A program made the position numbers and the translations under genes. A DNA stretch of 64,000 nucleotides from Escherichia phage UP19: sequence record OX638288, one strand, 5' to 3'. Under the pieces are notes generated by a model. The model saw only the letters and a program-made list of their open reading frames with translations. It had not been told where the DNA came from and searched no databases. This document shows positions 37,027 through 38,264 of this stretch, one piece after another. Each line of letters starts with the position of its first letter. Within the stretch, counting starts at the first letter, position 1.

Positions 37027-37481
37027 TGAAAACTGAAGATTTTGCTCAAGGTCTATACGTTGCTGCAAAATTCTCTGAATTGACTTTAGATGCGCTGGAA
37101 AATCTTCAGCGCACTTTAAAGGTTCCTAATCCGGTTCCTCGTGAAAAATTCCATTCTACAATCTGCTATTCAAGAGTCAACGTTCCATACACCGTTGCAT
37201 CCGGAAGTTTTGAAGTTGCTTCGACAGGACATCTTGAAGTGTGGAAACATGGTGATTCTCCCGTCTTGGTACTGGTTCTCGATTCAGAGTATCTTAAATG
37301 CCGCCATCAGTATGCTCGTACCTTAGGTGCTACGCACGATTTCGATGATTATACCCCTCATATCACATTGTCTTATAATGTAGGACCTCTTACCTTTAGT
37401 GGAGATGTCCAGATTCCTGTCGTTTTAGATAGAGAATATAAAGAACCCTTGAAGCTCGACTGGGCCGAGGATTTAAAGTGA
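37026..37481 (+). CDS. 57B: gp57B-like protein, predicted 2H phosphoesterase fold
   Basis: 151 aa; two H-x-[ST]-x motifs (HSTICYS, HITLSY); position after 57A. Confidence 0.7.
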
Positions 37482-37687
37482 AATCATACAAAGAATTCTT
37501 AACAGAAGCAATGGAACCCGCCTCTTCGGTGGCAATAGAGGTTTCTTGTACTCCTGAAGAATTTAAAGAAAGCCTGAAAGGTATAAATTGGCTTTCAGGA
37601 GAGTTATCTAATGGGGTTGCCTACTTCTTCGGCCCTCAATCGGATATAGATAGCTGGGTCTCTGAAAATTCTTCATGGCTAAAATAA
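37478..37687 (+). CDS. Internal-protein-like gene with capsid-targeting leader ([10 protein letters not shown]|A)
   Basis: GTG start overlapping the 57B stop; leader matches the T4 IP capsid-targeting sequence with an L-x-E gp21 cleavage site. Confidence 0.55.
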
Positions 37688-37699
37688 TTTAAAAAAGGT

Positions 37700-37728
37700 G
37701 TTTACAAGGTCTATAGACATGATACTAT
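37700..37728 (+). promoter_or_regulatory. Early promoter module (GTTTAC, 17 bp, TACTAT)
   Basis: GTTTAC 37700-37705; TACTATAGGCCTATCAA box. Confidence 0.6.
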
Positions 37729-37765
37729 AGGCCTATCAAAACAAACCAACCACATGGAAATCAAA

Positions 37766-37990
37766 ATGAAAACTTATCAAGAATTTATTACAGAAGCTAA
37801 AAAACACGAAGACCAACTGCCGGTTGTTACAAAAACCTTTGACGGTACATTGGCCGATTTTAAAAAAGTCCCTAGTGATAAGCTCGCTAAATTGGCCGGG
37901 AGTATCGGTGAAAAAGATGGCAAGGTCACGTTTTCTGCTCAAGGTACAGCCAATCTTAAAAAACTTTTGAAAGCCGCTGGCGCAGAATAA
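37766..37990 (+). CDS. Internal-protein-like gene (MKTYQEFITE|AK), Lys-rich
   Basis: Capsid-targeting leader at the ATG 37766; the ORF-track start 37754 lacks an SD. Confidence 0.6.
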   Translation: MKTYQEFITEAKKHEDQLPVVTKTFDGTLADFKKVPSDKLAKLAGSIGEKDGKVTFSAQGTANLKKLLKAAGAE

Positions 37991-37991
37991 A

Positions 37992-38264
37992 ATGAAAACT
38001 TATCAAGAATTTATCGCTGAATCTATTCTTAATGAGGAAGTAAAAATTAACAAATCTGTTAAGACTATGATTGATAATATAAATCATCTCTATAACATCG
38101 ATTTGACTAATCATGTAACTTTAGGCAATAAGCTAAACTTTTTTGTATTCGATACTTCAGAACTCGACCAAAATCAAATCAATAATATTGAACGCTTTGC
38201 TAATGACAAAGGGCTTCGTCACGAAACAGCTGGCTATAAAAAATATGCAATTTATCTAAAATAA
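37992..38264 (+). CDS. Internal-protein-like gene (MKTYQEFIAE|S)
   Basis: Capsid-targeting leader; ATG one base after the upstream stop. Confidence 0.6.
   Translation: MKTYQEFIAESILNEEVKINKSVKTMIDNINHLYNIDLTNHVTLGNKLNFFVFDTSELDQNQINNIERFANDKGLRHETAGYKKYAIYLK

Follow-up and report, generated by a model that had tools for sequence, protein, structure and literature searches.

Why should a T4-like phage carry, where T4 has one gene, three small tandem genes whose products begin with variants of the same ten residues, and what might these products do? The question is raised by Escherichia phage UP19 (sequence record OX638288), of which we analysed a stretch of 64,000 nucleotides (nt), hereafter the window. 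Three consecutive open reading frames (ORFs) in it, here called ORF-A, ORF-B and ORF-C, lie directly after gene 57B, and a first-pass annotation made from the sequence had proposed that each carries the leader of about 10 residues by which T4 targets its internal proteins (IPs) to the capsid. The positions and leaders were exactly as that annotation had given them, and we consider it likely, at a probability of about 0.85, that the ipI locus of this Dhakavirus is occupied by three genes for internal (head) proteins, which would be packaged in the head and ejected from it. Since variable IP loci are an established description, the UP19 cassette is a rediscovery: earlier work has described this class of protein and its locus, as well as the mechanism of shuffling and two of the three genes. 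What is added here is ORF-A as a leader-bearing, acidic and putatively distant relative of Ip6, a recurrent slot apparently coupled to 57B, and the abutment of 57B, which is Acb1 by family match, on an IP cassette.

Capsid-targeting leaders at the ipI locus

A six-frame scan of the window with the pattern [MVL]K[ST][YF]x[ED]F[LIVM]x[ED] gave six matches, every one on the + strand and at an ORF start codon (37478, 37766, 37992, 41178, 49634 and 50419). Since 0.002 matches were expected from amino-acid frequencies and none of 200 dinucleotide-preserving shuffles contained one, the leader is a real feature, far beyond chance. T4 IPII and IPIII both begin with MKTYQEFIAE, and the leader of ORF-C is therefore identical to theirs; relative to this sequence ORF-B has one changed position and ORF-A four, with Tyr4, Phe7, Leu/Ile8 and Glu10 kept in all three. 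A review of the work of L. W. Black (PMC9026906) states that T4 IPIII needs no more than its first 10 residues for head incorporation, that mutagenesis of this leader has assigned residues 4 and 7 to targeting and residues 8 and 10 to processing, and that gp21 cuts after Glu in L/I-x-E, cleavage being blocked by Asp at position 10. The predicted gp21 sites are LTE before Ala in ORF-A, ITE before Ala in ORF-B and IAE before Ser in ORF-C, with Glu, not Asp, at position 10 in each. The window also encodes gp21 itself (Table 1), so that both the mapped residues of the leader and the protease invoked in the first-pass annotation are present.

Across the leader only, ORF-B and ORF-C are matched by PHROG profiles belonging to other IP families, at expectation values (E) of 2e-4 to 4e-4, which answers the doubt raised with the original proposal, namely that the leader similarity might not be significant in a profile search. 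A profile search of the mature domains had been suggested as a check. All three ORFs have PHROG matches (Table 1); Pfam and NCBIfam scans of the six leader-bearing proteins returned nothing above threshold.

The genome of the window is that of a JS98/IME281-like Dhakavirus (Tevenvirinae) and is T4-like. The 2 kb surrounding the three ORFs is 97.5% identical to Escherichia phages EcWhh-1 and vB_EcoM_IME281, and 92-97% identical to the Dhakavirus phages IME08, IME341, WG01, JS10 and JS98. Gene order in the window (2, 3, 1, 57A, 57B, ORF-A/B/C, trna.4, trna.3, trna.2, tRNAs) is the T4 order, and in T4 the corresponding run, 1-57A-57B-ipI-trna.4, has one ipI gene in the slot that holds three ORFs in UP19, in agreement with the earlier statement that T4 has a single IPI at this site. 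The three ORFs occupy the T4 ipI locus, with 57B on one side and trna.4 on the other, and two repeats are shared with T4 ipI.

The likeness to T4 ipI and IPI* thus extends to the genomic slot, the flanking early-promoter/hairpin repeats, an N-terminal MK(T/S)(Y/F)xEF leader, small size and a non-essential accessory character. The differences are also clear. Apart from the number of genes, the T4 IPI leader has 19 residues (MKTFKEFTSTTTPVSTITE, then A) and those of the UP19 ORFs have 10, the mature UP19 parts lack sequence similarity to IPI* and the models of two of them give no fold match to it (see below), and ORF-A, unlike ipI, has no promoter element of its own and is predicted to be coupled to 57B. 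With T4 IPII and IPIII (Ip2 and Ip3, both GmrSD inhibitors), which are packaged, cleaved by gp21 and injected, the ORF-C leader is shared in full, and UP19 has its own second IP locus near denV/e; the mature parts of all six leader-bearing UP19 proteins, in contrast, are dissimilar to them.

The mature domains

Compared by BLASTP, the mature parts of ORF-A, ORF-B and ORF-C have no similarity at E<10 either among themselves or to the remaining three leader-bearing proteins in the window, and the three fall into different PHROG families, which bears out the earlier claim that the mature parts are unrelated to one another.

ORF-C starts 1 nt past the stop of ORF-B and would yield a mature protein of 80 amino acids (aa) with an isoelectric point (pI) of 6.8. 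It is 78% identical to Ip9 of phage RB15 (UniProt Q38376, Q38376_BPR15) at 100% coverage (90 aa; E 6e-39), RB15 Ip9 being among 16 database clusters to which it is 67-97% identical, and the record of phage IME08 describes its own copy as 'similar to RB15 and K3 Ip9'. ORF-C is recognizable from this similarity as the already named Ip9: it is homologous to Ip9 of RB15 and K3 over its full length, and the difference amounts to allelic divergence only. An AlphaFold2 model of the protein (predicted local distance difference test, pLDDT, of 81) shows a beta-beta-alpha-beta-beta unit preceded by two helices. In a literature search, the names Ip6 to Ip9 led to unrelated papers only.

ORF-B was given a mechanical ORF start at an in-frame ATG at 37754, four codons upstream of the ATG that opens the leader (37766). 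Its mature part has 64 aa and a pI of 9.5. By tblastn, homologues with 74-99% identity were found in 107 phage records, many of them annotated 'internal virion protein', from Escherichia, Shigella, Klebsiella, Salmonella, Citrobacter and Yersinia phages of the genera Dhakavirus, Tequatrovirus and Jiaodavirus; most lie directly downstream of 57B, including one in a Jiaodavirus. Both ORF-B and the fifth leader-bearing ORF, at 49634, match phrog_8765, and paralogy of the two was considered and rejected, the alignment being confined to the leader.

The GTG start of ORF-A overlaps the TGA stop of 57B (GTGA), with a GAGGA Shine-Dalgarno sequence 6 nt upstream, and ORF-A is accordingly arranged as would be expected for translational coupling to 57B/acb1, in a slot separate from that of ORF-B and ORF-C. 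With the leader removed it has 59 aa and a pI of 4.1. The family is conserved across T-even genera, with invariant Gly52, Pro53, Ile57 and Trp60 (GP..I..W), and is called 'hypothetical protein' wherever it is annotated; it is present in IME281 and in JS98, where the copy is unannotated, and absent in QL01-like phages. The nonsynonymous distance (dN) of ORF-A is 0.19-0.45 and that of 57B in the same genome pairs 0.12-0.20, dN being compared alone since synonymous sites are saturated and the ratio to synonymous change (dN/dS) is not computable. ORF-A changes faster than its neighbour 57B.

The AlphaFold2 model of ORF-A (pLDDT 72) has a strand at residues 16-22, a helix at 26-33, strands at 40-44 and 47-52 and a helix at 54-63. 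Profile searches with the ORF-A family pull in proteins named Ip6, and the same family profile found nothing significant among PDB sequences. A direct alignment of the mature parts of the ORF-A and Ip6 subfamilies with hhalign gave a weak match (P 5e-4, probability 31%), but both subfamilies match an intermediate KMB19/CkP1 subfamily, at 3e-9 and 2e-8 with probabilities of 96% and 95%. Furthermore, a Foldseek search of BFVD with the ORF-A model returned family members only, with a model of Ip6 from phage VR7 at E 3e-3 and a template-modelling (TM) score of 0.64. Because of the links through the intermediate subfamily and the match to the VR7 model, we regard ORF-A, with moderate confidence, as a distant Ip6 relative. 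It shares with the Ip6 family (for example 'Ip6 putative internal head protein' of vB_EcoM_VR7 and VR20) the leader, a C-terminal GP..(D/V)I(D/E).W motif and a predicted beta-alpha-beta-beta-alpha fold, and differs from it in that identity is just 22-28%, a 10-residue insertion is lacking and the protein is acidic.

Exchange and expression at the locus

Each of the two 55-nt elements of the cassette (Table 1) is a T4-type early promoter, GTTTACA followed by 16-17 nt and TACTAT with an upstream TG, in which the 3' arm of a hairpin covers the -10 and a conserved tail, ATCAAAACAAA, follows the hairpin. The two are 87% identical over 38 nt with the stem pairing maintained. The predicted RNA fold of element 1 has an energy of -16.8 kcal/mol (z -3.5), and both hairpins are about 3.4 standard deviations better than shuffles. 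T4 ipI is bracketed by elements of the same kind, with another stem sequence but with the pairing retained. In their make-up, a hairpin that overlaps the -10 of a TTTAC(A)-N16/17-TA(C)TAT promoter, the UP19 elements resemble the promoter-early stem-loop (PeSL) and PeSL-like cassettes of Arbiol 2010 and Comeau 2014. They differ from the PeSL of RB49 and phi1, which have GGGG...CCCC stems, in that their stems are AT-rich and variable, with compensatory changes, and the 5' crossover in UP19 lies within the leader codons and not in the PeSL. A third copy of the element, GTTTACA...TACTATAGTCCTATCAAAAC with 3 mismatches to the pattern, is found at 2828-2874 (+), near hoc/inh and far from the IP genes.

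The earlier description of the locus as a diversified cassette agrees with its variation among near-identical phages (JS98 and QL01-like). In a four-way alignment the window is collinear with JS98 through 57B, ORF-A, element 1 and the leader codons of the next gene. The alignment is lost right after the leader, where JS98 has an unrelated leader-bearing ORF of 97 aa in place of ORF-B and ORF-C, and collinearity returns exactly at element 2. QL01-like phages have no ORF-A, and the gap is bounded exactly by two TTAAA(G/A)T(G/A)A sequences, one at the end of each of the genes 57B and ORF-A (37472-37482 and 37679-37690). The presence or absence of ORF-A in close relatives maps to this short shared sequence, which suggests that the gene is gained or lost through recombination at microhomology rather than at a PeSL-like element. 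Taken together, the comparisons with JS98, QL01-like phages and T4 show a locus that is kept variable by recombination at shared short sequences, namely the 5' leader codons and the PeSL-like elements between and after the genes.

The same picture is obtained from a wider survey comprising 36 IMG/VR loci fetched by means of the 57B protein, the reference loci of IME281, IME08, JS98 and T4, and the window. The leader-bearing ORFs that follow 57B in these loci form 16 families, the mature parts of which have no detectable similarity. In 14 of the loci the first IP overlaps the 57B stop (ATGA), and at least five unrelated mature domains occupy that slot; by its sequence context, the 57B-coupled slot is a recurrent second insertion position. 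Such rapid swapping of unrelated domains at one site would be the expected product of an arms race.

Much of this has precedent. Variable IP loci and their flanking repeats have been described since 1994, by Repoila 1994 (as cited in later papers), Comeau 2007, Arbiol 2010 and Rao and Black 2010. That diversified IP cassettes with promoter/stem-loop flanks encode injected anti-defence proteins is likewise established (PMC2839356, PMC3012670, PMC4122927, PMC12373910). Five IP differences between PST and T4 were also noted by Comeau et al.

As to expression, ORF-A would be made along with 57B. For ORF-B and ORF-C the source would be the early-type promoter together with read-through, an arrangement that T4 ipI shares.

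Packaging, possible targets and neighbouring features

Several observations weigh against the interpretation of ORF-A, ORF-B and ORF-C as IPs of the T4 kind and have to be set against the leader and the locus. No exact late promoter (TATAAATA) is found directly upstream of any of the three, the nearest on the + strand being at 34044. By BLASTP, none of the six leader-bearing proteins has a match below E 0.1 in its mature part to T4 IPI, IPII or IPIII, and Foldseek searches of PDB with the models of ORF-A and of Ip9 gave no match at E<=1e-3, IPI* included. The mature ORF-A protein is acidic (pI 4.1) and the T4 IPs are basic. Lastly, no peptide of an ORF-B homologue appears in part of the supplement of a Jiaodavirus virion proteome (PMC13119998), for which the presence of the gene in that phage is uncertain.

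The promoter observation bears on whether the proteins are packaged at all, since the locus promoters are early-type and the leader codons do serve as a recombination boundary. The shared 5' end might then be a module for translation initiation and recombination, and the products early cytoplasmic proteins made from the early promoter. However, T4 ipI shares the early-type arrangement, and about 360 copies of its product are packaged (PMC9026906). Moreover, the leader is conserved as amino acids at the functionally mapped positions despite synonymous and conservative changes: across the 37-nt repeat that spans the leader the ORF-A DNA is 76% identical, yet Y4, F7, L8 and E10 are all kept. We therefore hold it to be very improbable that the three proteins stay out of the head.

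If they are internal head proteins, as we favour, their path can be outlined from T4. Each is made with a 10-residue N-terminal capsid-targeting sequence, as can be read from the genes. The leader would bind the gp22/gp67/gp68 scaffolding core during prohead assembly, as inferred from T4 IPIII, and gp21 would cut after Glu10 at the L/I-x-E site, for which both site and protease are present, so that mature proteins of 59, 64 and 80 residues would be kept in the head with the DNA. They would then be ejected with the DNA into the next host. There, on a hypothesis to which we give about an even chance, each would neutralise one variant of a host defence against incoming modified DNA, the likeliest target by analogy with the T4 proteins being a GmrSD-type type IV restriction enzyme; a type IV target would be expected only for DNA that is hydroxymethylated or glycosylated. 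The precedent is strong: each of T4 Ip1, Ip2 and Ip3 blocks a type IV enzyme of the GmrSD family that is distinct from the targets of the other two, and there is no cross-protection (Silas 2025, PMC12373910), and Arbiol et al. 2010 (PMC2839356) state that IPs enter the capsid and are injected 'for phage defensive/adaptive functions'. Silas et al. 2025 further refer to at least 10 reported Ips identified through the signal sequence, and assigned targets to Ip2 and Ip3 (PMC12373910). Since neither modelled protein, ORF-A or Ip9, has a PDB match at the threshold given above, neither resembles IPI* or a known solved inhibitor, and for the same reason an anti-restriction role can be argued by analogy only. 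We accordingly put forward an anti-defence role of ORF-A, ORF-B and ORF-C as a hypothesis; nothing in their sequence or predicted fold ties them to Ip1, Ip2 or Ip3.

The charge of the mature proteins raises the question of whether, once packaged, they might have a structural or physical role and not that of an anti-defence effector, either serving the condensed DNA as counter-ions or spacers or aiding the assembly of core and head, as reported for T4 IPIII. The T4 IPs are present at about 360 copies each and are basic, their lysines contact DNA phosphates, and IPIII mutants have head-assembly aberrations (PMC3012670, PMC9026906); mature ORF-B, with its pI of 9.5, would suit such a role. The acidic ORF-A and the neutral ORF-C are left unexplained by it, however, as is the swapping of unrelated domains among near-identical phages, which a generic physical role does not account for, and all three T4 IPs have specific GmrSD targets (PMC12373910). 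A purely physical function consequently seems quite unlikely.

The proteins may also be packaged and injected, as proposed, but directed at targets other than type IV restriction, such as other defences, competing phages, or the transcription or metabolism of the host, for which the injected Alt ADP-ribosyltransferase is a precedent. This would fit the lack of sequence likeness to Ip1-3 and of any match of the ORF-A and Ip9 models to a solved structure, the predicted co-translation of ORF-A with the anti-CBASS enzyme Acb1, and the acidic surface of ORF-A, which could conceivably suit a nucleic-acid mimic. Against it, every IP with a known target inhibits a GmrSD-family enzyme (PMC12373910), and the domains are small (59-80 aa) and carry no catalytic signature. 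We regard such other targets as possible, if somewhat unlikely. A bolder form concerns ORF-A, which could represent an unrecognised class of capsid-preloaded acidic effector, co-translated with Acb1 and acting as a nucleic-acid mimic or as an inhibitor of a non-GmrSD defence, with the 57B-coupled slot as a dedicated second anti-defence position; this we consider improbable.

The first-pass annotation had rated the three proteins as prime candidates for new anti-defence effectors. As candidates for a screen they are legitimate; their novelty does not hold, since ORF-C is Ip9 and ORF-B already carries the annotation 'internal virion protein'. Over 30 IP variants have been recorded (Comeau et al. 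2007, as cited by Arbiol et al. 2010, PMC2839356), almost none of them with a known target. IPs travel with the DNA and therefore act before any phage gene expression. The six leader-bearing proteins of UP19, none related to the three of T4, are thus ready candidates for screens against type IV restriction and other defences, and may be of use in host-range prediction for therapeutic T4-like phages; their value is that of a candidate list and not of a discovery.

Table 1. Coordinates of the leader-bearing ORFs, promoter/stem-loop elements, flanking genes and head-assembly genes in the window
Feature	Coordinates	Strand	Description
ORF-A, internal-protein candidate	37478-37687	+	GTG start, 69 aa; 10-residue leader, then AMEP; phrog_23867 at 2.6e-42
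ORF-B, internal-protein candidate	37766-37990	+	ATG start, 74 aa; MKTYQEFITE, then AKKH; phrog_8765 'internal virion protein' at 1.3e-26
ORF-C (Ip9)	37992-38264	+	ATG start, 90 aa; MKTYQEFIAE, then SILN; phrog_7673 'internal head protein' at 2.6e-55
Promoter/stem-loop element 1	37691-37745	+	-35 TTTACA 37701-37706; -10 TACTAT 37723-37728; hairpin 37707-37734
Promoter/stem-loop element 2	38259-38314	+	-35 38269-38274; -10 ends 38297; hairpin 38277-38302; right cassette boundary
57B (Acb1, anti-CBASS phosphodiesterase)	37026-37481	+	Pfam PF23474 Acb1, E 8.8e-59; gp57B in relatives; conserved left boundary of the IP locus
trna.4 homologue, small membrane protein	38334-38519	+	From the annotation of relatives and T4; conserved right flank of the locus
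Fourth leader-bearing ORF	41178-41795	+	205 aa; MKTYNEFLNE, then S; phrog_2280 (unknown function)
Fifth leader-bearing ORF	49634-49903	+	89 aa; leader, then S; phrog_8765
Sixth leader-bearing ORF	50419-50718	+	99 aa; MKTYQEFITE, then A; phrog_2667 'internal head protein' at 5e-43
gp21 prohead core serine protease	6304-6939	-	Pfam Peptidase_S77, E 1.1e-103; enzyme expected to remove the leaders
Presumed gp68	6939-7367		Between gp21 and gp67; no family match, name from position only
gp67	7367-7642		PF17634 at 7e-14
gp20 portal	7642-9216		Adjoins gp67

A third IP site may be marked by the fourth leader-bearing ORF, which is found some 0.9 kb downstream of the tRNA cluster and outside both classical IP loci. 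This ORF corresponds to gp140 of IME281, annotated as hypothetical, and has an exact late promoter (TATAAATA) at 41142, 36 nt upstream; it shows no similarity to T4 IPIII. The fifth and sixth ORFs belong to the e/denV region, which corresponds to the T4 ipII/ipIII locus. The layout there differs from that of IME281 by indels, and neither ORF resembles T4 IPII or IPIII past the leader.

Directly after the leader, ORF-C (SILNE), the fourth ORF (SVLNE) and the fifth ORF (SQLNE) share the sequence SxLNE (38004-38036, 41190-41222 and 49646-49678), which creates a second L-x-E site five residues past the first. Since most Ip9 homologues read FNE there, this second site is not conserved within the Ip9 family.

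Because the left neighbour of the cassette, 57B, is Acb1, known and candidate anti-defence genes lie side by side at this locus. The RefSeq label of 57B in relatives and in T4 is 'RNA ligase', as opposed to the Pfam match to Acb1, a cyclic-nucleotide phosphodiesterase. To the right, the tRNA cluster at 40086-40318 (+) has three genes (Met-CAT, Asn-GTT and Arg-TCT), compared with eight at the corresponding site of T4.

Elsewhere in the window, an ORF of 213 aa at 9973-10614 (-), just beyond gene 19 and upstream of the gp20 portal gene, combines a Cys-rich segment with a C-terminal 'QLDHKVSI...N' motif and resembles an HNH homing endonuclease, for which it is a candidate only. In IME281, positions 12673-15237 (corresponding to about 2230-4800 of the window, minus strand) are annotated with two adjacent gp24 head-vertex genes, a tandem duplication where T4 has one gp24.

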